A stretch of 64,000 nucleotides of DNA, taken from contig JANXBY010000025.1 of assembly GCA_025060455.1 (NCBI GenBank), positions 4,867-68,866 of the forward strand, read 5' to 3'. Positions 15,912 through 27,559 of the stretch are shown here, one piece after another. The DNA comes from Armatimonadota bacterium. Its GTDB lineage: Bacteria; Sysuimicrobiota; Sysuimicrobiia; Sysuimicrobiales; Sysuimicrobiaceae. A program made the translations under genes and the position numbers. A model generated the notes under the pieces. That model searched no databases. It was given only the letters and a program-made list of their open reading frames with translations, and was not told where the DNA came from. Within the stretch, counting starts at the first letter, position 1. Every line of letters starts with the position of its first letter.

Positions 15912-16303
15912 GGCGGTTTCTGTCGTACGAGGAGGCCAGTGCCCACCTGCCCGCGGTGCGGGAAGCGGTGCTGGAGCTGCGCCGGCTGCGCGAGCGTCTG
16001 GTGCTGCTGCGCGCCGCCCTGGAGCAGGCCGGCCCGGCGGACCGCTCCCGGCTGGAGCAGCAGGCCGAAGAGATCCTGGCGCGCATGTCCGAGGCCGTCC
16101 GCCGCATCGAGCAAGCCGGCGGGGAGCTGAAGGACCTGGATTTGGGACTGGTGGACTTCCTCACCTTACGGGCGGGCCAACCCGCGTACTACTGCTGGCG
16201 GCTGGGGGAGCCGGAGATCCGCTACTGGCACGGGCTGGACGAAGGTTTCGCAGGCCGCAAGCCCATCGACCCTGACGGGTGGACGGGCCTGCCCGTGGCC
16301 TGA
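15908..16303 (+). CDS. DUF2203 family protein
   Basis: F.YEEA..HLP.VR, GGELKDLDLGLVDF, YYCWRLGEPEIRYWH...EGFAGRKP; GTGA overlap. Confidence 0.85.
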   Translation: MRRFLSYEEASAHLPAVREAVLELRRLRERLVLLRAALEQAGPADRSRLEQQAEEILARMSEAVRRIEQAGGELKDLDLGLVDFLTLRAGQPAYYCWRLGEPEIRYWHGLDEGFAGRKPIDPDGWTGLPVA

Positions 16304-16390
16304 CGCCGCGCCCGCCTCCGTTCTGTACTGGGATCTATACTGGAGCTGGAGGCGTGCCGGCTGCGGCCGCTGCCGACGCTTCCACACTCC

Positions 16391-17017
16391 ATGGCAGAGG
16401 GGGTGATCCCCGTGAGGCAGGCGGTGAGCTCCCACAACCCTCTCGTCCTGATCCTCGCCCTGGTTACCGCCGCCGGCGTTGCCGGTGCCGTCTATCTGTA
16501 CTACGTGGCCACGGGACGGGAGACCGCGGAGCTGCGCAAGTCCTTCGGTGCCCTGTTCTTCGCCCTCGGCGTGTTCTCCCTGGGGGGCTTCGTGCAGCTC
16601 CTTTGGTCGGACTGGGCCGGTTTCCCGGTGGGGCACTACTCCGAACTGTTCGGGACCAGCACCGGCCTGTTCTCCCTGATGCTCATCCTGGCCGGCTTCT
16701 ACCTGTACACGGGGCTGGACCTGCGGATGGTGGCCTGGCCCGCGGCGCTGCTGGGCCTGTTCCTGCTCCAGGGCGCTCGGGCGGTGCTGGACTTCAAACT
16801 GACCCGCAACCCGACCGTGACCTTCGTCCTGTGGCTGTCCGCGGGGCTTGCCAGCGTGGGGATGTTGCCCTACGCGTACAGCCAGCAGGGGGCGCGGCGG
16901 ACTCTGGCGTACTTGGGCGTGGTGGTGCTCGCGCTCATGGCCCTGGCGGCCCTGATCACCGGTGTGAACGCCTTCTACGGTCACATCGCGGAGGTGGTGC
17001 GGCAGCAGGCGCGGTGA
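16391..17017 (+). CDS. Multi-pass membrane protein, DUF981-like
   Basis: About 6 TM helices; W..FP.GHYSELFG resembles the DUF981 conserved loop. Confidence 0.55.
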   Translation: MAEGVIPVRQAVSSHNPLVLILALVTAAGVAGAVYLYYVATGRETAELRKSFGALFFALGVFSLGGFVQLLWSDWAGFPVGHYSELFGTSTGLFSLMLILAGFYLYTGLDLRMVAWPAALLGLFLLQGARAVLDFKLTRNPTVTFVLWLSAGLASVGMLPYAYSQQGARRTLAYLGVVVLALMALAALITGVNAFYGHIAEVVRQQAR

Positions 17018-17046
17018 GTGGCGGCGGTGAACGAAGACATGGCTGG

Positions 17047-17087
17047 GCGGCCCCGCGCCCGGGTGGGCAGCCCCGGCGCGGGGCCGC
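17047..17087. repeat. Perfect 13-bp inverted repeat (stable hairpin) upstream of lpdA
   Basis: GCGGCCCCGCGCC (17047-17059) / GGCGCGGGGCCGC (17075-17087); no U-tract. Confidence 0.7.
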
Positions 17088-17119
17088 ACCGTGAAGGGAG
17101 TTCCCAACGGGAGGACCGC

Positions 17120-18520
17120 ATGGGCGATGGGTATGACCTCGTGGTGATCGGAGCGGGACCGGGAGGATACGTGGGGGCCATCCGCGCCGCGCAGCTGGGG
17201 ATGCGGACCGCCATCGTGGAGCGGGACAAGCTCGGGGGCACCTGCCTCCACTACGGATGCATCCCCACCAAAGCGCTGCTGCACGCGGCCGAGGTAGCGG
17301 AGCTGGCGCGGCACGCGGGCCAGGTGGGCGTGCGGGTGGAGTCGGTGTCCGTGGACTTCGCCGCGGTGCACCGCTACCGGGAGCGCACCGTGAGCACCCT
17401 CCACCGCGGCGTGGAGTACCTCATGCGCAAGCACCGGATCGCCACCTTCGCGGGGACCGCGCGGCTGGTGGGCCGCAACCGGGTGCACGTGAGCCTGAAC
17501 GATGGGTCGGAGACGGAGCTGGAGACCCGGAACGTGCTGGTGGCCACGGGCTCTCGGCCGCGCAGCCTGCCATGGCTGGCGGTGGACGGAGACCGGGTGC
17601 TGAGCAGTGACCACCTGGTGTCCTTACAGGAACTGCCCGCCCGGCTGGCAGTCCTCGGGGCGGGCGTGATCGGGGTGGAGTTCGCCAGTGCCTTCGCCAG
17701 CCTGGGAAGCCAGGTGACCGTGGTGGAGATCCTCCCCAGGGTGCTGCCCGGGGAGGACGAGGAGGTGAGCGCGGCGGTGGAGAAGGCCCTGACCCGTAGG
17801 GGGATCCGGGTGCTCACCTCCGCCACCCTGAAGGGTGTGGAGCGCGCGGGGTCCGGGCTGCAGCTGTCCGTGGAGAAGGACGGGAAGGTGGAGGTCCTGG
17901 AGGCGGATCGGCTGCTGATCGCGGTGGGCCGTGCCCCCGTCACCGACGGCCTGGGCTTGGAGGAGGCAGGGGTGGAGGTGGACGGGCAGGGGTTTGTGCG
18001 GACCGAGGGCACCTACCGGACCACCGCGGCCGGCATCTGGGCCGTGGGAGACGTGATCCACGCGCAGCCCATGCTGGCCCACGTGGCCTCCGAGGAGGCG
18101 GTGCGGGCGGTGGAGGACATGGCGGGCCACCCCACCGCTCCCTTGGACTATGACGCGGTGCCCCGCTGCACGTACTCCAACCCGGAGGTGGCCTCCTTCG
18201 GCCTGACGGAGGCCCAGGCCCGGGAGCGCGGCTACGACGTGCGGGTGGGACGGTTCCCGTTTTCCGCCAACGGAAAGGCCCTCATTCTCGGTGAGCGGGA
18301 TGGGTTCGTGAAGGTGGTCACCGACGCCAAGCACGGAGAGATCCTGGGCATGCACCTGGTGGGACCCCGGGTGACGGAACTGCTGCCGGAGGGGATCCTG
18401 GGCAAGAGCGTCGAAGCCACCATCCACGAGCTGGCCGCGGCGGTGCACGCCCACCCGACCCTGTCGGAGGCGGTGCACGAGGCCGCCCTGGACGCCCTCG
18501 GCCGCGTGGTGCACGTGTAG
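17120..18520 (+). CDS. lpdA: Dihydrolipoyl dehydrogenase (E3)
   Basis: GAGPGGY, GGTCLHYGCIPTK redox disulfide, GAGVIGVE, HAHPTLSE; GGAGG RBS before ATG 17120. Confidence 0.96.
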   Translation: MGDGYDLVVIGAGPGGYVGAIRAAQLGMRTAIVERDKLGGTCLHYGCIPTKALLHAAEVAELARHAGQVGVRVESVSVDFAAVHRYRERTVSTLHRGVEYLMRKHRIATFAGTARLVGRNRVHVSLNDGSETELETRNVLVATGSRPRSLPWLAVDGDRVLSSDHLVSLQELPARLAVLGAGVIGVEFASAFASLGSQVTVVEILPRVLPGEDEEVSAAVEKALTRRGIRVLTSATLKGVERAGSGLQLSVEKDGKVEVLEADRLLIAVGRAPVTDGLGLEEAGVEVDGQGFVRTEGTYRTTAAGIWAVGDVIHAQPMLAHVASEEAVRAVEDMAGHPTAPLDYDAVPRCTYSNPEVASFGLTEAQARERGYDVRVGRFPFSANGKALILGERDGFVKVVTDAKHGEILGMHLVGPRVTELLPEGILGKSVEATIHELAAAVHAHPTLSEAVHEAALDALGRVVHV

Positions 18521-18540
18521 GAAGACGGGGAGGGAGCGGC

Positions 18541-19596
18541 ATGAGCGCGAAGGAAGTGCGGGCCGAGGCCCGCCACGTGGAGTTGGGACTCTCCGACCAG
18601 GACGTGCTCCAGATGTACTACTACATGGTCCTGGCGCGCGCCCTGGACGAGCGCATGTGGCAGCTCCAGCGGGCGGGCAAGGCGATGTTCGTAATCTCGG
18701 GGCCGGGGCACGAGGGCGCGCAGGTGGGCATGGTGTGGCCCTTGGATCGGGAGCGCGACTGGTTCGTGCCGTACTACCGGTCCGTGGCCGCGGTGCTGGT
18801 GAAGGGCATGACGCCCACGGACATCCTGCTGGCGGTGCTGGCCAAGGCCACAGACCCGAGCAGCGGGGGCCGGCAGATGCCCGGCCACTACGCGCACCCC
18901 AAGCACCGGATCCTCTCCACCAGCAGCCCCGTGGGGACGCAGTACCCGCACGCCGCCGGGCTCGCGTACGCGGCCAAGGTGCGGAAGACGGGTGAGGTGG
19001 TGCTGGTCACGATCGGCGACGGGGGCACCAGCCAGGGCGACTGGCACGAGGCGCTGAACTTCGCCGCCATCCACAAGGTCCCGTGCCTGTTCGCGGTGGA
19101 GAACAACCGGTACGCCATCTCGGTGCCGCTGCACAAGCAGATGGCCGTCCCCAGCGTTGCCCTCCGGGCGCCAGGCTATGGGATGGTGGGGGCCAGCGTG
19201 GACGGGTCAGACGTGCTGGAGTGCTACCGGGCCGCCAAGGAGGCGTATGACCGGGCCAAGCGGGGCGAGGGGCCCACCCTGCTGGAGTTCCGGGTAGAGC
19301 GCCTGGGGTCGCACAGCAGCGACGACCAGCAGGAGCGCTACCGCCCAAAGGAGGAGATCGAGGCGGCGCGCCAGCGGGATCCCATCCCCAACTTCCGCCG
19401 CTACCTGGAGTCCGTGGCCCTGTGGGACGAGGAGCGGGAGCAGGCCCTGCGGGACCGGGTGCGCCGCGAGGTGGACGCGGCCACCGACGAGGCGGAGCGG
19501 GCGCCGGACCCCGACCCTGCCACCGCCGCCCGGCATGTGTACTACGACCCGGACCCTGCCCGCCCGGTGGACCCGGTGTGGTGGACGGGCCGCTGA
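18541..19596 (+). CDS. 2-oxoacid dehydrogenase E1 alpha (branched-chain type)
   Basis: TPP motif GDGGTSQGDWHEALNF...ENNRYAIS; HSSDD loop; resembles Bacillus BfmBAA. Confidence 0.92.
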   Translation: MSAKEVRAEARHVELGLSDQDVLQMYYYMVLARALDERMWQLQRAGKAMFVISGPGHEGAQVGMVWPLDRERDWFVPYYRSVAAVLVKGMTPTDILLAVLAKATDPSSGGRQMPGHYAHPKHRILSTSSPVGTQYPHAAGLAYAAKVRKTGEVVLVTIGDGGTSQGDWHEALNFAAIHKVPCLFAVENNRYAISVPLHKQMAVPSVALRAPGYGMVGASVDGSDVLECYRAAKEAYDRAKRGEGPTLLEFRVERLGSHSSDDQQERYRPKEEIEAARQRDPIPNFRRYLESVALWDEEREQALRDRVRREVDAATDEAERAPDPDPATAARHVYYDPDPARPVDPVWWTGR

Positions 19597-19607
19597 GGGA
19601 GGACGCC

Positions 19608-20591
19608 ATGGCGGAGCTGCGGTACGTGGACGCCCTGAACCGGGCCCACCACGAGGAGATGGAGCGGGACGAGCGGGTGGTGGTGCTGGGCGAGGACGTG
19701 GGACGGAAGGGCGGGGTGTTCGGGGTGACCCAGGGCCTGTTCGAGCGGTTCGGGGAAGACCGGGTGATCGACACCCCGCTGGCGGAGTCCTCCATCGTGG
19801 GCTGCGCCATCGGGATGGCGTGCAACGGGCTGGTGCCCATCGCCGAGATCCAGTTCGCGGACTTCATCCACCCCGCCTTCAACCAGATCGTGAGCGAGGC
19901 AGCCCGCATGCGCTACCGATCCAACGGCGCCTTCGGGGTCCCCCTGGTGATCCGGGTGCCGTACGGCGGCGCCCACGGCACCGCCCTGTACCACTCCCAG
20001 TGCGTGGAGGCGTTCTACGCCCACGTGCCGGGCCTGAAGGTGGTGGCACCCAGCACCCCCTACGACGCCAAGGGGATGCTGAAGGCAGCGGTCCGTGACC
20101 CCGACCCCGTGCTGTTCCTCGAGCATAAGCGCATGTACCGGCTGATCCGGGGAGAGGTGCCCAACGAGGACTATACGGTGCCGCTGGGGCCCGCGGCGGT
20201 GCGCCGGGAGGGCCGCGATCTTTCCGTGTTCACGTACGGCTGGACCCTGCACGAGGCGCTGCAGGCCGCGGAGGCCGCCGCCCGGGAGGGCATCGAGGTG
20301 GAGGTGGTGGACGTACGCTGCCTGCGGCCCCTGGACAAGGAGACCATCCTGCGCAGCGTGGCCAAAACCAACAAAGCCCTGGTAGTGTACGAGGACAACC
20401 GGTTCGGTGGGTTCGGGGCGGAGATCGCGGCCCTGATCGCGGAGGAGGCCTTCGAGGACCTGGACGGGCCGGTGATGCGGCTGGCGGGCCCGGACGTGCC
20501 CGGGATCCCCTTCGCCCGGCCGCTGGAGCAGTGGTATTGGATCAGCCAGGAGAAGCTCCTGGCCGCGGTCCGGAAGCTGGCCCACTACTGA
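19608..20591 (+). CDS. 2-oxoacid dehydrogenase E1 beta
   Basis: GEDVGRKGGVF, DTPLAESSI, EIQFADF, LYHSQ, FLEHK. Confidence 0.94.
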   Translation: MAELRYVDALNRAHHEEMERDERVVVLGEDVGRKGGVFGVTQGLFERFGEDRVIDTPLAESSIVGCAIGMACNGLVPIAEIQFADFIHPAFNQIVSEAARMRYRSNGAFGVPLVIRVPYGGAHGTALYHSQCVEAFYAHVPGLKVVAPSTPYDAKGMLKAAVRDPDPVLFLEHKRMYRLIRGEVPNEDYTVPLGPAAVRREGRDLSVFTYGWTLHEALQAAEAAAREGIEVEVVDVRCLRPLDKETILRSVAKTNKALVVYEDNRFGGFGAEIAALIAEEAFEDLDGPVMRLAGPDVPGIPFARPLEQWYWISQEKLLAAVRKLAHY

Positions 20592-20598
20592 GGCGCCC

Positions 20599-21768
20599 AT
20601 GGCCACGGACGTGCGCCTCCCGCAGCTCGGCGAGAGCACCTATGAGGCCACCATCGGGCGGTGGCTGAAGTCACCCGGCGACCAGGTGGAACGGTTCGAG
20701 CCACTGGTGGAGCTCATCACGGACAAGGTGAACGTGGAGATGCCCTCCCCCGTGGCGGGACGGCTGGTGGAGATCCTCGCCCAGGAGGGGCAGACCCTGC
20801 CCGTGGGCTCGGTGATCGCGCGGGTGGAGGAGGCGCCGGACAAAACTGCGGAGGAGGAACGGCCCGCGGCGGAGGAGCGGCGGGCGGCAGGCCGGCTTTC
20901 GCCCCTTGTGAGCCGCCTGGTGCAGGAGCACGGAATCACCCCCGAGGAGCTGACCCAGATCCGGGGCACCGGCGCCGGCGGCCGGATCACCAAGCAGGAC
21001 GTACTGGCCTTCCTGGAGCGGAAGAAGGCGGCCGCGTCCGCCCCCGCGGCGCCCGCGGCGCAGACACCCCCAGCCGCCGAAGAGCGGCGCGTGCCGCTTT
21101 CGCCCATCCGCCGGGCCATCGCGGAGCGGCTCACCAGGGCCAAGCGGGAGATCCCCCACGCGTACGGGGTGGTGGAGGCAGACGTCACGGAGCTGGTACG
21201 TTGGTACGAGGCGCACCGGGAGCCCTTTCAGCGCCAGCATGGGGTCCGGCTGACCTACACCGCCCTGTTCGCCCGGGCCGCGGTGGAGGCGCTGCGGGCG
21301 TTCCCCGTGGTGAACGCGCGGTGGGCGGAGGATGCCATCGTCCTGCAGCCGCACGTGAACCTGGGGATCGCGGTGTCCGTGGAGGACGGGCTGGTGGTGC
21401 CGGTGATCCACCGGGCGGAGGAGAAGAGCCTGGTGGGGATCGCCCGGGAGCTGGAGGACCTCACCCGCCGGGCCCGGGAGGGCAAGCTGGGCCTGGAGGA
21501 CGTACAGGGCGGTACCTTCACCCTCACCAACCCCGGTGTGTTCGGCTCCATCTGGTCTCTGCCCATCGTGAACTACCCCCAGGCCGCCATTCTGGCCACC
21601 GACGCCATCGTGAAGCGTCCCGTGGTGCGGGAGGACGCCATCGCCATCCGGGCGGTGATGCACCTGGGGCTCTCGTTCGACCACCGGGTGTTCGACGGGG
21701 CGGTGGCTGTCCAGTTCCTGAACCACGTGAAGGCAAGCCTGGAAGCCGTGGAGCCCGTCACCCGTTGA
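20599..21768 (+). CDS. Dihydrolipoamide acyltransferase (E2)
   Basis: Lipoyl domain TDKVNVEMPSP, E3-binding GTGAGGRITKQDV, catalytic FDHRVFDG. Confidence 0.94.
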   Translation: MATDVRLPQLGESTYEATIGRWLKSPGDQVERFEPLVELITDKVNVEMPSPVAGRLVEILAQEGQTLPVGSVIARVEEAPDKTAEEERPAAEERRAAGRLSPLVSRLVQEHGITPEELTQIRGTGAGGRITKQDVLAFLERKKAAASAPAAPAAQTPPAAEERRVPLSPIRRAIAERLTRAKREIPHAYGVVEADVTELVRWYEAHREPFQRQHGVRLTYTALFARAAVEALRAFPVVNARWAEDAIVLQPHVNLGIAVSVEDGLVVPVIHRAEEKSLVGIARELEDLTRRAREGKLGLEDVQGGTFTLTNPGVFGSIWSLPIVNYPQAAILATDAIVKRPVVREDAIAIRAVMHLGLSFDHRVFDGAVAVQFLNHVKASLEAVEPVTR

Positions 21769-21780
21769 AAGGAGGTCCCC

Positions 21781-22650
21781 GTGGCAGTTGTCCCGCAGCG
21801 CCCGCCCTGGCTGAAGGCCCGCCTGCCCTCCGGCCCCAACTACCGGGAGCTGGTGACCATCCTGCGCAGCCAGCGGCTGCACACGGTTTGCGAGGAGGCC
21901 CGCTGCCCCAACATCGGCGACTGCTGGGAGCGGCGCACCGCCACCTTCCTGATTCTGGGGAACGTGTGCACCCGCAACTGCTCGTACTGCGCCATCGCCC
22001 ACGGCCTGCCCACGGAGGTGGACTGGCGGGAGCCGGAGCGGGTGGCGCAGGCGGTGGCCGCCATGGGGCTGCGCCACGCGGTAGTGACCTCCGTGGACCG
22101 GGACGACCTGAAAGACGGCGGGGCCAGCGTGTTCGCGCAGACCATCCGCCGCATTCGGGAGCTGAGGCCAGGCTGCAGCGTGGAGGTGTTGATCCCCGAT
22201 TTCAAGGGCGACCCGGACGCCCTGCGGACGGTGCTGGACGCGGGTCCGGACATCCTGAACCACAACATCGAGACGGTCCGTCCGGTGTTCCGCCGGGTGC
22301 GCAGCGGGGGCAACTACGACCGGTCGTTGGAGCTGCTGGCACGGGTCAAGCGGTGGGGCTACCCGTGCCTCACCAAGAGCGGCCTCATGGTGGGCCTGGG
22401 AGAGACCTTCGACCAGGTGGTGCAGACCTTGGAGGATCTGCGCTCGGTGGGCTGCGACATCGTGACGGTGGGCCAGTACCTGAGCCCGGGGCCCGGGTAC
22501 GAGCCCGTGCACCGGTACTGGCACCCGGAGGAGTTCGCGGAGCTCAAGCGGCTCGGCCTGGACATGGGCTTCCGCCACGTGGAGGCTGGCCCCCTGGTGC
22601 GCAGCAGCTACCACGCGGACGAACAGGTCCTGCGGGCGGTGGCGCGGTGA
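21781..22650 (+). CDS. lipA: Lipoyl synthase
   Basis: CEEARCPNIGDC, CTRNCSYC, RSSY. Confidence 0.97.
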   Translation: MAVVPQRPPWLKARLPSGPNYRELVTILRSQRLHTVCEEARCPNIGDCWERRTATFLILGNVCTRNCSYCAIAHGLPTEVDWREPERVAQAVAAMGLRHAVVTSVDRDDLKDGGASVFAQTIRRIRELRPGCSVEVLIPDFKGDPDALRTVLDAGPDILNHNIETVRPVFRRVRSGGNYDRSLELLARVKRWGYPCLTKSGLMVGLGETFDQVVQTLEDLRSVGCDIVTVGQYLSPGPGYEPVHRYWHPEEFAELKRLGLDMGFRHVEAGPLVRSSYHADEQVLRAVAR

Positions 22651-23105
22651 CGGGCGCAGAGGTGTGGGCGGACGGGCCCCGCGGGGCGGAGCGGGTGGCC
22701 CCGTGGCGGCTGCGGGCGCAGGTGGTGCTCGCGGTGGAGGGAGCCGGGTGCCACGGCTGCGTGCAGCTGGCTGCGGAGGCGGTCCAGCGGGCGGCGTGGT
22801 GGGCCGGGTGGGGTGTGGAGCTCTTGCTGCTCTGCGAGGGGCCGCCCTTGCCGGTGCCGGCGCATCAGGCCCGGGACCCCAGGGGCCGAACCCGGGGCGG
22901 CGCGGACGCGGTGTGTCTGGTGTTTGACCGGCGGGGCAGGCCTGCGGGCCGGTGGGTCCTCACCCACCCCCACCGGCTCCCATGGGAGGAGCTGGACGCC
23001 CTGGTGCGGTGGGTGGGAGTGCAAGAACCCGAGTGTGGAACGTGTGTGGTGGAGCCTGCGTGGGAGGAGCTGGACAGGGAGGAGTCGGCATGGAAGTCCA
23101 CGTGA
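22647..23105 (+). CDS. Hypothetical redoxin/thioredoxin-fold-like protein with two CxxC motifs
   Basis: GTGA overlap with the lipA stop; VVLAVEGAGCHGC, DPRG, VFDRRG, LPWEEL, QEPECGTC; C-terminal part of track ORF 20661..23105. Confidence 0.65.
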   Translation: MTGAEVWADGPRGAERVAPWRLRAQVVLAVEGAGCHGCVQLAAEAVQRAAWWAGWGVELLLLCEGPPLPVPAHQARDPRGRTRGGADAVCLVFDRRGRPAGRWVLTHPHRLPWEELDALVRWVGVQEPECGTCVVEPAWEELDREESAWKST

Positions 23106-23761
23106 CCACCCGGAGGTTCGAGCTGGGCGAGCACGCGCGAGAGGTGCTGGACCGGTCCGTGGCCAGGTTGCAGCGGCGGCTGCGCCACTTCCGGCCCGAC
23201 CTGGTGCACTTGCAGGTGAAGCTCGAACGCGCCGCGCGCAAGGAAGAGTACACCGGCAGCGCCCGGCTGTACCTGCCGGGGCGGGTGTTGTACGCACGGC
23301 GCAACCGGTCCGCCACCCCGGAGGGGTGGCTCCGGGCCGCCTTCGATGACCTGGAGCAGCAGCTGTCCCGGTACAAGGCCCAGCTCCGGCGGGAGCACGC
23401 CCACGAGCGCCGGCGGGCTTCCCTTTCCCCTGAGGTGGTGGAGGCTTACGAGCGGTCGTTAATGGAGGAGCGGGAGCTGCTGGACCGGGCCCTGGCGGGA
23501 GACCGGGAAGCGTTTGAGCGGCTGGCGGACGAGGATCTGCCCGTGTTGCGCCGCGCGGTGGAGCGCGAGCTGCTGCGTCTGGGGCGGCCCGTGACGCCGG
23601 AAGCGGTCCAGCAGGCGGTGGCGGAGGCGATGTCCGCGGCCTTCCGGAACTTGAGCCGCAAACCCGCCCGGTGGAGCGTGGGCGGCTGGCTGGCCTGGGT
23701 GGCCAAGCGCACTCTGCGCATGGAGCCCGTGGCGGCAGCCACCCGGGGAGGCCGCCAGTAG
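23090..23761 (+). CDS. HPF/RaiA (S30AE) domain fused to an ECF-sigma region-2-like domain
   Basis: N-term MEVHVTTRRFEL...LYLPGRVL...AAFDDLEQQLSRYK; C-term ELLDRALAGDREAFERL...AFRNL...WLAWVAK; GGAG RBS before ATG 23090. Confidence 0.8.
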   Translation: MEVHVTTRRFELGEHAREVLDRSVARLQRRLRHFRPDLVHLQVKLERAARKEEYTGSARLYLPGRVLYARRNRSATPEGWLRAAFDDLEQQLSRYKAQLRREHAHERRRASLSPEVVEAYERSLMEERELLDRALAGDREAFERLADEDLPVLRRAVERELLRLGRPVTPEAVQQAVAEAMSAAFRNLSRKPARWSVGGWLAWVAKRTLRMEPVAAATRGGRQ

Positions 23762-23763
23762 CC

Positions 23764-24777
23764 CTACCCTGCCCGGGCCGCCTCCCGCTCCTTCTTCTCC
23801 ATGATGGCGCTGGAGTGGCCGGGGAAGGCCTTCGCGCCCGGGTTCAGATAGGTGTAGGCGTTATTCACCGCCGTGGCTGCCTCCCCGTAGCCAGTGGCGA
23901 TGAGCTTGAGCTTGCCCGGGTAGGTGGCGATGTCCCCGGCCGCGTACACGCCCGGGAGGTTGGTCTCCATCTTGGTGTTCACCACGATGGAGTCCTCCTC
24001 GATCTGCAACCCCCACTCCCGGATGGGCCCAAGGTTGCTCACCAGGCCCAGAAAGGCTAGCACCGCGTCCACCTCCAGGACCTCTTCCTCCTTCGTGCGG
24101 TTGTTGAAGATCACCGCGCGCTCCACCCGCTCGTTCCCCTCCAAGGCCTTCAGCTCGTAGAACAACTTCACCCTGGCGGACGAGCTCAGGAGCTTCCGCA
24201 CGGAGTCCTCATGGGCGCGGAACTGGTCCCGGCGGTGGATGAGGGTGAGCTCCCGGGTGATGGGCAGGAGGTTGAGGGCCCAGTCGAGGGCGCTGTCGCC
24301 CCCACCCACCACCAGCACCCGCCGGTCTCGAAAGTCCTCCCGGTTGCGGACCGCGAAGAACAGCCCACGCCCCTCGTACTGGTCCAGCTCCGGCCGGTTG
24401 TACTTCTTGGGGGTGAAGGCCCCGATCCCCGCGGCGATGAGGACCACCCGGGTGAAGTGCTCCTGGCCCGTGTGGGTGACCAGCCGGTAGTTGCCGTCCG
24501 GAAGCCGCTCGAGGACCTCCACCCGCTCGTTCAGCACCACCGTGGGGTTGTACTGCATGGCCTGCTCTATCTGGTTGCGGATGAGGTCCTTGCCGAGGAT
24601 CTTGGGAAAGCCCGCCACGTCGTAGATGTACTTGTCAGGGTACAGCGCGGTGACCTGTCCACCGAGGTCCGACTGGCTGTCGATGATCTTCGTCCGCAGG
24701 GCCCGGAACCCTGCGTAGTAGGCCGCGAACAGACCGGTGGGTCCCGCTCCGACGATGGTGATGTCGTACAGGTCCAT
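23764..24777 (-). CDS. Ferredoxin--NADP+ reductase, TrxR-like (YumC type)
   Basis: GAGPTGLFAAYY, GGQVTALYPDKYIYDVAGFP, GGGDSALDW, GKLKLIATG, PGHSS; no CxxC. Confidence 0.9.
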   Translation of the reverse strand: MDLYDITIVGAGPTGLFAAYYAGFRALRTKIIDSQSDLGGQVTALYPDKYIYDVAGFPKILGKDLIRNQIEQAMQYNPTVVLNERVEVLERLPDGNYRLVTHTGQEHFTRVVLIAAGIGAFTPKKYNRPELDQYEGRGLFFAVRNREDFRDRRVLVVGGGDSALDWALNLLPITRELTLIHRRDQFRAHEDSVRKLLSSSARVKLFYELKALEGNERVERAVIFNNRTKEEEVLEVDAVLAFLGLVSNLGPIREWGLQIEEDSIVVNTKMETNLPGVYAAGDIATYPGKLKLIATGYGEAATAVNNAYTYLNPGAKAFPGHSSAIMEKKEREAARAG

Positions 24778-24804
24778 GGTGCCTCCTCCGGGCGTTCTCC
24801 GGGC

Positions 24805-24813
24805 ATTGTAGCA
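24805..24813 (-). promoter_or_regulatory. Extended -10 promoter (TGcTACAAT) for the FNR gene
   Basis: Reverse complement of ATTGTAGCA; GGAGGAGG SD downstream, before the ATG at 24777. Confidence 0.62.
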
Positions 24814-24856
24814 GAGGGTCCTCCAAGCCCGCGCGTTGACCTATGTCAGCGGGCGT

Positions 24857-24886
24857 TTGACACCCGCCCCCGCGGTGGGGTACCCT
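24857..24886 (+). promoter_or_regulatory. sigma70 promoter for moeB
   Basis: TTGACA-18bp-TACCCT. Confidence 0.55.
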
Positions 24887-24934
24887 GCTAGCCGTGGGCG
24901 GCCTGCGGAAGCCTCGCGAGTGCATCTGTCCCCG

Positions 24935-25015
24935 GCGGGGGTAACTCCTCCTTCGGGAGGATTCCCCCGCGCCTCCTCGTTTTCCAGTTCGGATCCACGT
25001 GAGCTCGGGAGAGGC
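24935..25015 (+). promoter_or_regulatory. Structured 5' leader of moeB (candidate cis-regulatory RNA)
   Basis: Hairpin GCGGGGG..TCCTCC-TTCG-GGAGGA..CCCCCGC (24935-24970, cUUCGg loop), then GCCTCCTCG (24971-24979) complementary to CGGG-A-GAGGC (25006-25015), which covers the SD. Confidence 0.5.
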
Positions 25016-25017
25016 AC

Positions 25018-26202
25018 ATGGCGACGGTTCAGGCCCTGACGGAGGAGCAGCTGCAGAGGTACTCCAGACAGATCATCCTGGAGGAGGTGGGGGTCGCCGG
25101 CCAGCGGCGGCTGCTGGAAAGCCGGGTGCTGGTGGTGGGCGCCGGCGGTCTGGGATCCCCGGCGGCCCTGTACCTGGCCGCGGCCGGGATCGGGACCATC
25201 GGCATCGTGGACGGCGACCGGGTGGACCTCACCAACCTGCACCGCCAGATCCTGCACTTCCACCACGACATCGGCCGTCCCAAGACCCAGTCCGCACGCA
25301 GGACCCTGGAGGACGTGAACCCCGACGTGCGGGTGGTCCCCCACCAGACGGTGCTCACCTCCGCCAACGCTCTGGAGATCCTGTCCCAGTACGACGTGGT
25401 GGTCAACGGAAGCGACAACTTCCCCACCCGGTACCTGGTCAACGACGCGTGCGTGCTACTGGGCAAGCCTCTGGTGGACGCCAGCATCCTGCGGTGGGAG
25501 GGCCAGGCTACCACCTTCCTGCCGGGCCGGGGGTGCTATCGGTGCCTGTTCCCGAGCCCCCCGCCCCCCGGTGCCGTGCCCTCCTGCGCGGAGGCGGGGA
25601 TCGTGGGAGCGGTGGCGGGCTTCATGGGCACCCACCAGGCTCTGGAGGTCGTCAAGATCCTCCTGGGGGTCGGCCAGACCCTGGCCAACCGGCTGATGCT
25701 GTTCGACGCCCTCACGGGGGAGATCCGGTTCGTGCGGTGGTCCCGGAACCCAGACTGCCCCGTGTGCGGCGACCGCCCCACCATCCGGGAGCTCATCGAC
25801 TACGAGGCGTTCTGCGGCGTACCCGCACACGACCGGGTCCAGCAGACCCAGCCCCGCCCCCCGGAGGTGTCCGTGGCGGAGGTGGACGCTTTGGTGCGGG
25901 AGGGGGCGGTGCTGGTGGACGTGCGGGAGGCGTGGGAGGTGGCGCAGGCCCACATCGAGGGCACGCGGTGGATCCCCATGGGAGAGGTGGAGTCCCGGGT
26001 GCACGAGATCCCCGCGGACCGGACGGTGGTGGTCTACTGCGCCTCCGGCCAGCGCAGCGGCAAAGTCACCCAGTGGCTGCGGGAGCGGGGCTACGACCGG
26101 GTGTTCAACCTGGTGGGCGGGATCATCGCCTGGCAGAACGCCGGAAAGCCGGTGCGGACCGGGCTCCCACAGCCGCAGGGAGAACCCGCGGGCCGCACCT
26201 GA
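25018..26202 (+). CDS. moeB: MoeB/ThiF adenylyltransferase fused to rhodanese (MoeZ/MoeBR type)
   Basis: RYSRQIIL, GAGGLGSP, NLHRQILH, CYRCLFP, PSCAEAG, CPVC; rhodanese YCASGQRS. Confidence 0.93.
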   Translation: MATVQALTEEQLQRYSRQIILEEVGVAGQRRLLESRVLVVGAGGLGSPAALYLAAAGIGTIGIVDGDRVDLTNLHRQILHFHHDIGRPKTQSARRTLEDVNPDVRVVPHQTVLTSANALEILSQYDVVVNGSDNFPTRYLVNDACVLLGKPLVDASILRWEGQATTFLPGRGCYRCLFPSPPPPGAVPSCAEAGIVGAVAGFMGTHQALEVVKILLGVGQTLANRLMLFDALTGEIRFVRWSRNPDCPVCGDRPTIRELIDYEAFCGVPAHDRVQQTQPRPPEVSVAEVDALVREGAVLVDVREAWEVAQAHIEGTRWIPMGEVESRVHEIPADRTVVVYCASGQRSGKVTQWLRERGYDRVFNLVGGIIAWQNAGKPVRTGLPQPQGEPAGRT

Positions 26203-26925: not shown

Positions 26926-27294
26926 ATGATCACCCTGACGGAAGTGGCGGCCCAGAAGATCCGGGAGCTGATGGCCGAGCAGCCGGGGGAGGTGTACCTG
27001 CGGCTGTTCGTCACCAAGGGCGGGTGCGAGGGGTTCACCTACGGGATGGGGTTTGACGACCAGGTACAGCCGGACGACCGGGTTACCGAGCAGCACGGGA
27101 TCCGGCTGGTGGTGGATCCCCTCACCTGGCGGGTGATGGACGGCGCGCGCATCGACTACCGACAAACACCTTTCGGCGAGGGGTTCGCGGTGCACAACCC
27201 GAGGGCGGTGGCCACCTGTGGCTGCGGCCACTCCTTCAAGACCACGGACGACCCCGGGGAGGCGCAGCCGTGCGGGGAGGGCCAGCCGGCATAG
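26926..27294 (+). CDS. iscA: A-type Fe-S carrier (HesB/IscA/ErpA family)
   Basis: MITLTEVAAQKI, GGCEGFTY, TCGCGHSF (3 Cys). Confidence 0.92.
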   Translation: MITLTEVAAQKIRELMAEQPGEVYLRLFVTKGGCEGFTYGMGFDDQVQPDDRVTEQHGIRLVVDPLTWRVMDGARIDYRQTPFGEGFAVHNPRAVATCGCGHSFKTTDDPGEAQPCGEGQPA

Positions 27295-27304
27295 GGAGGA
27301 AGGC

Positions 27305-27559
27305 ATGAGCGACGCGGTCTCCCAGGAGCTGGACGTACGGGCACGCGTGGAGCGTGTGCTGCAGGCGATCCGTCCGTACATCCAGGCGGACGGTGGTGAC
27401 ATCGAGCTCGTGGACGTGAGCGACGGGGTGGTGCAGATCCGCCTGGCGGGGGCGTGCGTGGGGTGCATGTACTCCATGATGACGCTACAGGCCGGGGTGG
27501 AGCGGATGATCCGCGAGGAGGTCCCGGAGATCCAGGCGGTGGAGGCCGTGCCCTTCTAG
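27305..27559 (+). CDS. NifU/Nfu-domain Fe-S carrier
   Basis: IRPYIQADGGDIEL, GACVGC, TLQAGVE. Confidence 0.92.
   Translation: MSDAVSQELDVRARVERVLQAIRPYIQADGGDIELVDVSDGVVQIRLAGACVGCMYSMMTLQAGVERMIREEVPEIQAVEAVPF

Follow-up and report, generated by a model that had tools for sequence, protein, structure and literature searches.

A 152-aa protein is encoded, in translational coupling with lipA, at the end of the lipoyl synthase (LipA) operon of a hot-spring genome of the uncultured phylum Sysuimicrobiota (CSP1-3), and modelling assigns it a TlpA/ResA/peroxiredoxin-like thioredoxin fold. Our preferred reading, which is tentative, is that the protein acts as a metal- or Fe-S-thiolate accessory of LipA, a dithiol function being less likely. 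A cysteine/metal helper of LipA appears more likely than a switch for the downstream HPF-like gene, the role proposed in an earlier note on this DNA. Positions refer to the window, i.e. the whole 64,000-nt stretch of DNA that was analysed, and the features discussed are collected in Table 1.

The gene, its junctions and its operon

The 152-aa ORF runs on the forward strand from a GTG start codon (22647-22649) to a stop codon at 23103-23105, where the earlier note had placed it inside a long shadow ORF. It occupies the last 152 codons of an enclosing open frame of 814 codons (20661-23105), a shadow frame of high GC that lies across E2 and lipA. The ORF is a real gene, beyond chance, since the GC3 signal leaves the lipA frame for that of the 152-aa ORF at 22650 and moves on to the HPF frame at ~23090 (GC3 of 0.876 in the 152-aa ORF frame, a coding-type value), homologues are found at E values of 1e-29 to 1e-78, all four cysteines are invariant in 15 orthologues and dN/dS is below 1 (0.44-0.61, about 0.5, versus 0.12 for lipA). 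Identity within the genus is 49-56 % for the 152-aa protein, versus 90-93 % for LipA and 85-90 % for the HPF fusion, the 152-aa gene evolving at ~7x the rate of the fusion. The gene had been described as unannotated; an identical 152-aa protein is in fact a called gene in a public protein collection. Its relatives are filed as 'hypothetical protein', and no family name for it was returned by Pfam or NCBIfam models. The sole Pfam/NCBIfam match, to the UxxU seleno-metal-binding model (E value 0.15), was taken as noise, and a selenocysteine or pseudogene in the orthologue of genome G009 was discarded, as the in-frame TGA is its terminal stop.

Both junctions that had been reported, the GTGA overlap with the lipA stop and the 16-nt overlap with the HPF start, are seen in the sequence. 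Within the phylum, the gene is restricted to one family (f1), in which the 4-nt RTGA overlap with lipA is kept in 9/10 genomes, spanning three genera. The 16-nt HPF overlap is also present in three other orthologues of the genus, whereas in genus g2 the two genes either overlap by 4 nt or lie 24 nt apart. The C-terminal codons of the 152-aa ORF contain the Shine-Dalgarno sequence of the HPF gene (GGGAGGAG); we therefore attribute conservation of 'EE..WKST' at the C-terminus of the protein to the HPF ribosome-binding site and start codon that overlap there.

The operon has the order DUF981-Lpd-E1alpha-E1beta-E2-LipA with the 152-aa gene at its end, and the order Lpd-E1-E2-lipA-orf recurs in another MAG. 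Together with the GTGA overlap, this order bears out the suggestion that the gene is coupled to lipA in a 2-oxoacid dehydrogenase operon. No promoter-like site was detected within 16000-25200, the terminator scan returned three terminator-like matches, at chance level, and an Rfam scan of 20000-26000 returned no RNA family. The expression search found the stretch in hot-spring DNA metagenomes only and in no RNA run. IscA (26929-27294) and a canonical Nfu (27305-27559) are also encoded in the window, and the FNR-type flavoprotein, IscA and Nfu all lie <=4.5 kb from the 152-aa gene, placing it in an Fe-S context. The possibility that the ORF substitutes for a missing Nfu was rejected on account of the Nfu domain gene and IscA 4 kb downstream.

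Outside f1, lipA directly abuts a convergent FNR-type gene, or ThiF, in this phylum; the 152-aa gene and the HPF fusion are thus an f1-specific insertion between lipA and the FNR-type gene. Among the f1 genomes, G011 has lipA directly beside FNR and lacks the 152-aa gene, while the ORF directly abuts FNR in G003 and is followed by ThiF in G009, both without the HPF fusion.

Table 1. Features of the lipA-HPF region and of the 152-aa protein, in window coordinates
Feature	Position	Strand	Basis
lipA (lipoyl synthase), upstream partner	21781..22650	+	Pfam Radical_SAM and LIAS_N; NCBIfam lipoyl synthase, 413 bits vs cutoff 203
152-aa thioredoxin-fold gene, atypical, predicted cytoplasmic, unnamed family	22647..23105	+	GC3, homologues, AF2, Foldseek
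GTGA, ORF start codon over lipA stop (translational coupling)	22647..22650	+	Sequence; lipA stop TGA 22648-22650
C35-H-G-C38, CxxC at helix alpha-1 N-cap (thioredoxin active-site position)	22749..22760	+	DSSP, orthologues
Ala88 at cis-proline position, first residue of strand 88-93	22908..22910	+	Alignment; strand from AF2 model
His107-Pro108, loop after beta-hairpin	22965..22970	+	Invariant in 15 orthologues
Most conserved segment, residues 113-139, W..D..VRWVGVQEPECGTCxVEPxW, including knuckle	22983..23063	+	Mean conservation
P128-E-C130-G-T-C133, C-terminal Cys pair	23028..23045	+	Alignment
16-nt overlap, ORF end/HPF-like gene start (ATG 23090)	23090..23105	+	Sequence, orthologue junctions
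HPF/YfiA N-domain and helical C-domain fusion	23090..23761	+	Pfam PF02482, 8.5e-9
FNR-type thioredoxin-reductase-like flavoprotein, Cys-free, convergent, phylum-wide neighbour of lipA	23764..24777	-	TrxR model, 172 bits vs cutoff 343; synteny

Predicted fold, conserved residues and family

The AF2 model of the 152-aa protein (pLDDT 87.9, pTM 0.77) returned DsbE, ResA, TlpA-like proteins and peroxiredoxins (Prx) as top matches in Foldseek (E value ~1e-6, TM ~0.6), including archaeal Prx with Cys-bearing C-terminal arms. The search against the PDB gave 407 matches at E<=1e-3, and the best 50 of the 407 were all thioredoxin-fold. A branch A homologue is predicted to share the fold (TM ~0.7). The earlier expectation of a thioredoxin/AhpC-like fold is thus supported by AF2 and Foldseek; however, the label 'redoxin-like' does not extend to a canonical redoxin, as the protein lacks both the cis-Pro and the Prx motif and its CxxC dipeptide varies freely. 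The 152-aa protein had no match to Pfam Redoxin/AhpC-TSA at E<=1, and its relatives match these models below the Pfam gathering threshold only (best E value 3.9e-6), with weak AhpC-TSA matches in 41/63 family members. No match to Pfam 2Fe-2S_thioredx or NifU domains was returned. Judged by eye, there is no hydrophobic segment, and hence no apparent export signal or membrane anchor, at the N-terminus (MTGAEVWADGPRGAERVAPWRLRAQ).

The best structural matches, ResA/DsbE(CcmG)/TlpA, are thiol-disulfide oxidoreductases of cytochrome maturation and share with the 152-aa protein an N-terminal beta-hairpin and a thioredoxin core, the alpha-1 N-cap CxxC and a 'vvDrxG' hairpin motif. They are exported or membrane-anchored and possess a cis-Pro and a family-specific XX dipeptide (e.g. 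CEPC), whereas the 152-aa protein is predicted to be cytoplasmic, has Ala and a free XX, and carries in addition two conserved His residues and, at the C-terminus, a Cys knuckle. Peroxiredoxins (AhpE, BCP/PrxQ, archaeal Prx) are of the same fold with weak sequence matches; C38 aligns with the peroxidatic Cys, and in archaeal Prx, too, a mobile C-terminal arm carries two Cys. The P-x3-T-x2-C of AhpE is in the same register as E31-x3-C35-x2-C38, so that PxxxTxxC is replaced, and the Prx catalytic Arg, which occupies the cis-Pro-equivalent position (PMC2757866), corresponds to Ala88.

The reported CHGC at the thioredoxin position and C-terminal PECGTC are both present, as C35/C38 and C130/C133. 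In the AF2 model, DSSP assigns coil to residues 31-35 and helix to 36-54, with C35 ending the coil, and WCGPC, in CITRX and similar proteins, is the motif with which the CxxC aligns. Each of the 15 orthologues has a different XX dipeptide. The cis-Pro column, at the start of the third core strand, holds an invariant Pro in branch A only and A/V/G/T/I in branch B, and contains no conserved Arg. His107-Pro108 would lie beside the CxxC according to fold topology, as probably would H31; a conserved His is also found in branch A (H124 of A4), and position 31 is Glu in the 152-aa protein and His in relatives. Mean conservation is 0.84 over residues 113-139 versus about 0.55-0.6 elsewhere. The PECGTC register is shifted relative to the QCPECG of Actinomycetota homologues, the C-terminal Cys motif is of low pLDDT (~57-59) in both AF2 models, and this CPxCG-type knuckle gave weak zinc-ribbon/knuckle Pfam matches. 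A single intramolecular Cys4 zinc site built from both CxxC pairs is disfavoured because C130, where the last core helix ends, would by fold topology lie at the far end from the active site, and because homologue P0019 has lost H31, C35, C38 and H107 together and keeps the C-terminal pair.

The family is rare and unnamed: out of 5.8 billion proteins, about 70 clusters belong to it. Its signature consists of (H/E)-x3-C-x2-C, a His in the post-hairpin loop, a flexible Q[C/E]PECG knuckle at the C-terminus and a Trp, and the 152-aa protein belongs to it by virtue of its four Cys, P128-E129-C130 and W139. All four Cys are kept in 61/62 full-length members, and P128, E129, C130 and W139 are invariant in 63/63 members; branch A has the spacing H-x2-C. 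Homologue P0085 is fused to a glutaredoxin (Grx) domain, P0019 precedes msrA and one homologue is labelled 'anti-sigma YlaD' by JGI. No homologue outside f1 has lipA as a neighbour and none in other phyla neighbours an HPF or sigma gene, the contexts there being sucCD, Rieske/PQ-loop, an AI-2E transporter and a response regulator.

Candidate functions

In the mechanism that we prefer, the protein would be a non-essential accessory of the lipoyl synthase/lipoyl-E2 system, translated by ribosomes that have just finished LipA, and would act through Cys thiolates holding a metal or Fe-S centre and not through a tuned disulfide. Site 1, at the end of the fold that bears the active site, would comprise E/H31, C35, C38 and H107; the cis-Pro is lost there and the XX dipeptide is free. 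Site 2 (C130/C133) would be a mobile arm independent of site 1, serving either as a metal bridge, within a dimer or to the CxxC of a partner (Nfu, LipA), or as a shuttle for reducing equivalents. The cluster-ligand Cys of LipA (or of the nearby Nfu/IscA) would thereby be kept reduced and loaded after consumption of the auxiliary 4Fe-4S cluster. We favour a metal over a tuned disulfide because the XX dipeptide varies in 15/15 orthologues, Ala is found at the cis-Pro position (Pro being kept in branch A), the conserved His31/His107 probably flank a site whose four residues are co-lost in P0019, the CPxCG-type knuckle weakly matches Zn-ribbons and the four Cys are so widely retained among full-length members.

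Over the thioredoxin fold class, conservation of the cis-Pro exceeds that of the CxxC, and a role in blocking metal binding is ascribed to it (PMC2757866). Replacement of the cis-Pro in human Trx1 is described as leading to [2Fe-2S] cluster binding (PMC6210436, citing Su et al. 2007). Human Trx1 P75S/T/A, Arabidopsis TRXo, Grx2 and monothiol Grx are cases in which cis-Pro loss or an altered site allows a [2Fe-2S] cluster to sit on the CxxC in a dimer. Besides binding Fe-S, TRXo acts as a reductant of the CxxC in the NFU carriers that serve lipoyl synthase pathways (PMC6210436). The relationship of the 152-aa protein to these Fe-S thioredoxins and glutaredoxins is one of fold only, and it differs from them in its extra His pair and second Cys pair. 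Sco/SenC copper chaperones have the same Prx-like fold and bind metal via an active-site Cys pair and a distal post-hairpin His, to which H107 may correspond; however, Sco proteins are membrane-anchored with CxxxC, the 152-aa protein has CxxC and no Pfam SCO1-SenC match, and no Sco was among the best 50 of 407 fold matches. We consider the most relevant functional settings to be NfuA/Nfu and A-type carriers and the Mtb Lpd-DlaT-AhpD-AhpC relay, CxxC proteins that service LipA or draw electrons from lipoyl-E2, with no homology to the 152-aa protein. A literature search for lipoyl synthase with thioredoxin-like or glutaredoxin-like partners returned nothing relevant. The most specific form of this proposal, an undescribed class of lipoyl-synthase helper in which a cis-Pro-less thioredoxin fold carries iron or Fe-S on Cys2/His(Glu)2 and docks through its C-terminal knuckle onto LipA/Nfu to re-reduce and reload the auxiliary-cluster site, is quite improbable as a whole.

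Several observations sit uneasily with a metal-binding accessory of LipA. The CxxC is in canonical redox geometry at the alpha-1 N-cap, branch A retains the cis-Pro, and the Grx fusion of P0085 and the msrA neighbour hint at thiol-disulfide chemistry. Regarding LipA itself, homologues outside f1 lack the lipA neighbour, G011 has lipA beside FNR without the gene, a dN/dS of ~0.5 indicates weak constraint and, with canonical Nfu and IscA nearby, a cluster donor is not missing.

It is possible, though rather unlikely in our estimation, that the protein is instead a classical, if divergent, thiol-disulfide oxidoreductase. Its two redox-active dithiols would be the CxxC of the active site and a C-terminal shuttle or resolving pair comparable to those of 2-Cys/archaeal Prx arms, Erv tails and RNR tails, and the protein would either trade electrons with E2/Lpd through the dihydrolipoyl arm or reduce oxidized Cys of LipA/Nfu. 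Precedents are AhpD/AhpC and Ohr, which depend on lipoamide, and the protection of 2-oxoacid dehydrogenases by thioredoxin. The canonical CxxC position in a ResA/Prx-like fold, the Cys-bearing arms of archaeal Prx among the top fold matches, the Grx-domain fusion, the cis-Pro of branch A and the Lpd and lipoyl-E2 encoded in the operon are all consistent with this, as is the low pLDDT of the C-terminal motif, which fits a mobile arm. However, Ala replaces the cis-Pro here and A/V/G/T/I do so across branch B, an XX dipeptide fully unconstrained among close orthologues is unusual for a tuned redox centre, and neither the PxxxTxxC motif nor the catalytic Arg of Prx is present. The msrA neighbour, which would point in the same direction, belongs to P0019, which lacks the active-site CxxC.

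Less probable again is that the gene is an operon passenger, i.e. a horizontally acquired, fast-evolving small Cys protein (for metal buffering or stress) in a permissive lipA/FNR junction, unrelated to LipA and overlapping lipA only to secure expression. Its confinement to one family of the phylum, with lipA abutting FNR or ThiF elsewhere, the absence of the gene from G011, the unrelated contexts in other phyla, the dN/dS of ~0.5 and the low within-genus identity relative to LipA are what would be expected of a passenger, but the 4-nt lipA coupling is kept across three genera, and the four Cys and the 27-residue C-terminal block are strictly conserved.

The two-gene switch put forward in the earlier note, here understood as one in which a redox/metal sensor binds the sigma-region-2-like domain of the HPF fusion in the style of a zinc anti-sigma (ZAS) factor and relays lipoamide/Fe-S status to ribosome hibernation, is very unlikely. 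The 16-nt overlap with the fusion, the H-x3-C-x2-C spacing of the ZAS motif in most family members and the 'anti-sigma YlaD' label are compatible with it, and the fusion is never found without the 152-aa gene (8/8 genomes), a figure that reflects synteny and not independent co-occurrence because it always concerns one same locus. In the converse direction the association fails, as the gene persists without the fusion in two of the ten f1 genomes (G003, G009) and likewise throughout the other phyla. Nor does the conserved 'EE..WKST' end of the protein speak for the switch, given the HPF signals that overlap it. The two also show no sign of co-evolution, the fusion being far better conserved within the genus than the ~7x faster 152-aa gene. 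ZAS factors carry H-x3-C-x2-C in an all-helical anti-sigma domain (zf-HC2), whereas the 152-aa protein has Glu at position 31 and a thioredoxin-like fold, branch A has H-x2-C, and zf-HC2 was not among the best 25 of 28 Pfam families matched by the 63 members. The 'HPF-sigma fusion' is itself an HPF/YfiA N-domain fused to a helical C-domain, the sigma-70 region-2 likeness of the latter being sub-threshold (NCBIfam sigma models, E values of 3e-4 to 0.04, all under cutoff; PDB ECF sigma match, E value 0.45). 'Thiol/metal' is a fair description of the protein, but its casting as a sensor reporting to HPF-sigma is not supported.

Implications

Each turnover of lipoyl synthase costs the enzyme its auxiliary 4Fe-4S cluster, which it destroys itself. 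To our knowledge, the re-reduction and reloading of LipA are known in a few model systems only, namely through NfuA or IscU in E. coli and NFU1/BOLA3 in mitochondria. If the protein turned out to be a plain reductase or a passenger gene, the gain would be a modest one of annotation, giving a name and a fold to ~70 'hypothetical protein' clusters. The family also appears to represent a natural thioredoxin fold without a cis-Pro and without a tuned CxxC dipeptide, the same change that makes human Trx1 an Fe-S binder in the laboratory. If our preferred reading of a metal- or Fe-S-thiolate accessory is true, LipA would have a thioredoxin-fold partner of its own, produced in step with it, and this would constitute a new reloading route.

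Reality and boundaries of the lipA-linked gene

The 152-aa orf between lipA and the HPF fusion is a real and conserved gene. At ~70 % G+C the window is rich in long shadow frames, and the frame holding the orf is open for 814 codons (20661–23105). GC3 is 0.93–0.97 in the lipA frame until about 22600; the orf frame then takes over with 0.88–0.95 from 22660 to about 23000 (0.876 over the whole orf), and the HPF frame is dominant from about 23080. This GC3 switch, the overlaps with both neighbours and the presence of CHGC and PECGTC bear out the gene proposed in the earlier note; its description as unannotated was inaccurate, since a public protein collection already lists the identical 152-aa product as a called gene, and its relatives are entered as hypothetical proteins. 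An RTGA overlap of orf start and lipA stop is found in 9/10 genomes of f1 (the Sysuimicrobiota family holding the window genome), across three genera, and the orf is probably translated by termination–reinitiation from lipA. A promoter scan of window positions 16000–25200 returned no promoter-like site.

Features of the lipA locus, in gene order (window positions)
Feature	Position	Strand	Remark
Fur-family regulator
DUF981
Lpd	17120–18520
E1 alpha
E1 beta
E2	20599–21768
LipA	21781–22650
orf	22647–23105	+	Cys motifs C35-H-G-C38 and P128-E-C130-G-T-C133
orf start codon GTG	22647	+	GTGA shared with lipA stop
orf stop codon	23103–23105	+
HPF fusion	23090–23761	+	start ATG at 23090, 16-nt overlap with orf end
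FNR-type flavoprotein	23764–24777	-	convergent; Cys-free, TrxR-like
ThiF-rhodanese
UPF0047		-
IscA, A-type carrier	26929–27294		Pfam Fe-S_biosyn
Nfu domain, stand-alone	27305–27559		GACVGC; follows IscA, 4 kb downstream of lipA

The orf evolves fast. Within the genus, its amino acid identity is 49–56 % (dN/dS 0.44–0.61), compared with 90–93 % for LipA (about 0.12–0.14) and 85–90 % for the HPF fusion (about 0.10–0.14). Constraint is focused on residues 113–139 (mean conservation 0.84 vs about 0.55–0.6 elsewhere) and on six Trp residues that are invariant among 15 orthologues.

Fold, family branches and active site

The window protein has a thioredoxin fold by modelling, two Cys pairs that are conserved and a predicted cytoplasmic location, and the thioredoxin/AhpC-like fold guessed from the sequence was right. 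The AlphaFold2 model (63-sequence alignment; pLDDT 87.9, pTM 0.77) comprises a β-hairpin, strand 24–30, helix 36–54, strands 57–63, 73–76, 88–93 and 99–105, helix 113–130, a low-confidence loop (131–140, pLDDT 59) and a last helix (137–151). Foldseek matched it to DsbE, ResA, TlpA-like oxidoreductases and peroxiredoxins in the PDB (E about 1e-6, TM about 0.6), and the model of a branch A member has the same fold (pLDDT 89, TM about 0.7), its C-terminal knuckle again being of low confidence. Sequence-profile matches to AhpE and to other Prx/Trx proteins (E about 0.01) cover only their N-terminal half. Sub-threshold AhpC-TSA matches occur in 41/63 family members, weak zinc-ribbon or knuckle matches come from the C-terminal motif, and no curated family (Pfam, NCBIfam) claims the protein.

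Six relatives were returned by a single-sequence search against 5.8 billion proteins, 20 by an exhaustive HMMER search against 1.84 billion representatives and 71 clusters by a profile search, indicating that the family is rare. The source genome is a 2.26-Mb MAG (95 % complete), and near-identical DNA was found in hot-spring metagenomes only. Two branches are apparent. Branch A (mainly Actinomycetota MAGs) has the active site LHDxCxxC, an invariant Pro at the cis-Pro position and the C-terminal motif QCPECGVS, while branch B (Sysuimicrobiota, Armatimonadota-labelled and unbinned contigs) has LHGxxCxxC, a non-proline residue (A/V/G/T/I) and QEPECGxC. The four Cys are kept in 61/62 full-length members, and P128, E129, C130 and W139 are invariant in 63/63 aligned; the Cys partner of C130 lies three residues upstream in branch A and three downstream in branch B.

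The cis-Pro of thioredoxin-fold oxidoreductases, conserved more strongly than CxxC across the class, is thought to keep metals away from the thiolates, and peroxiredoxins carry Arg there (PMC2757866). The window protein has neither, residue 88 (the first of the third core strand) being Ala; unlike peroxiredoxins, its family presents (H/E)xxxCxxC in register with Prx PxxxTxxC. The N-terminal CxxC dipeptide differs in all 15 Sysuimicrobiota orthologues (HG, RG, LS, WD, SD, SS, RA, EA, AG, AA, PA, PG, PD, GW and GF), and about 31 distinct forms occur among the 63 aligned members.

His31 and His107 are conserved in the family. The former is four residues ahead of the first Cys and the latter is in the loop after the hairpin, which we take to correspond to the Gly92 loop in E. 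coli thioredoxin; judging from known thioredoxin structures, the fold topology should place the two next to the CxxC. Among the 15 Sysuimicrobiota orthologues, 13 have His at residue 31 (22737–22739), as does almost the entire family, whereas the window protein and a relative at 84 % have Glu. Glu31 is a recent change of ligand type at the putative site 1 (E/H31, C35, C38, H107). P0019, an Armatimonadaceae homologue, has lost H31, C35, C38 and H107 together yet retains QEPECGVC; the active-site group and the C-terminal Cys pair therefore behave as separate units. At locus L020 (6001–7158), the P0019 gene lies 46 nt upstream of msrA.

Genomic context of the orf and its homologues

A second MAG has the identical order Lpd-E1-E2-LipA-orf-223aa-FNR. 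In the remaining families of the phylum, the gene directly after lipA is a convergent FNR-type one (1–84 nt away) or ThiF, and FNR also comes directly after lipA in the orf-less f1 genome G011. The orf, together with the HPF fusion, is therefore an f1-specific, dispensable insertion. Attachment of the orf to lipA is lineage-specific. The pairing of lipA with the Cys-free FNR-type gene is phylum-wide, recurring in several Sysuimicrobiota families (loci L047, L049, L051, L053, L054, L059, L061 and L062, and window 21781–24777) and may mark reductant supply for lipoyl synthase, a radical-SAM enzyme. The stops of the HPF fusion and FNR-type gene are merely 2 nt apart (23761–23764), leaving no room for an intergenic terminator; any termination signal must be within coding sequence.

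In the 223-aa HPF fusion, the N-domain is clearly of the HPF/YfiA type (Pfam 8.5e-9), and the helical C-terminal part has only sub-threshold likeness to sigma-70 region 2 (NCBIfam E 3e-4 to 0.04; PDB ECF sigma E 0.45). Restricted to f1, it occurs in 8/10 orf-bearing genomes, always at the lipA locus and never in orf-less genomes. The conserved orf tail 'EE..WK(S/C)T', which encodes the HPF Shine–Dalgarno sequence and first codons, is present only where the HPF start overlaps the orf.

Homologues beyond Sysuimicrobiota have no lipA neighbour; genes near them include msrA, sucCD with a B12-binding protein, those for an AI-2E transporter, a response regulator and a cyclase-AAA-TPR regulator, and, in two cases, Rieske and PQ-loop genes. 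The 102-aa Rieske and 141–150-aa PQ-loop membrane proteins lie near a branch A homologue in two Actinomycetota contexts (L022/L023, 1719–2866; L026/L027, 2929–5004), which may represent a separate conserved module; L022 also carries a cupredoxin and L026 PpoB2.

Candidate roles

Because of the lost cis-Pro, free XX dipeptide, flanking His, co-loss pattern and CPxCG-like knuckle, a metal or Fe-S centre ligated by thiolates would fit the window protein better than a tuned redox disulfide. Experimental precedents are given in PMC6210436 (citing Su et al. 2007): cis-Pro replacement suffices for [2Fe-2S] binding in a human Trx1 dimer, and TRXo of plants is an Fe-S binder that also reduces the CxxC in NFU carriers. 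Since the orf is coupled to LipA, with FNR, IscA and Nfu nearby, we tentatively favour an accessory that would keep the cluster-ligand cysteines of LipA or Nfu reduced and loaded.

An oxidoreductase with two dithiols that acts on LipA or together with lipoyl-E2/Lpd, consistent with the two Cys pairs and the Foldseek matches, is somewhat less likely given the features pointing to a metal or Fe-S centre. That the orf is a passenger with a role unrelated to LipA is unlikely; the lipA-free settings outside the phylum are compatible with it, and the recurrent overlap with the lipA stop speaks for coupling. The switch proposed in the earlier note, with the orf as sensor and the HPF fusion as effector, is very improbable, as no evidence for such a pair was seen and an obligate one is opposed by the intact orfs without HPF fusion in the f1 genomes G003, where FNR directly abuts the orf, and G009, where ThiF follows it.

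Within the thioredoxin-fold class, the window protein represents an unnamed, new variant whose active site is unusual. P0085 (277 aa, ENA contig), in which a glutaredoxin-family domain (PF00462) is fused to a branch A-like domain ending LECPECAGEIPW, hints in Rosetta-stone fashion at a tie between this family and thiol or Fe-S chemistry.
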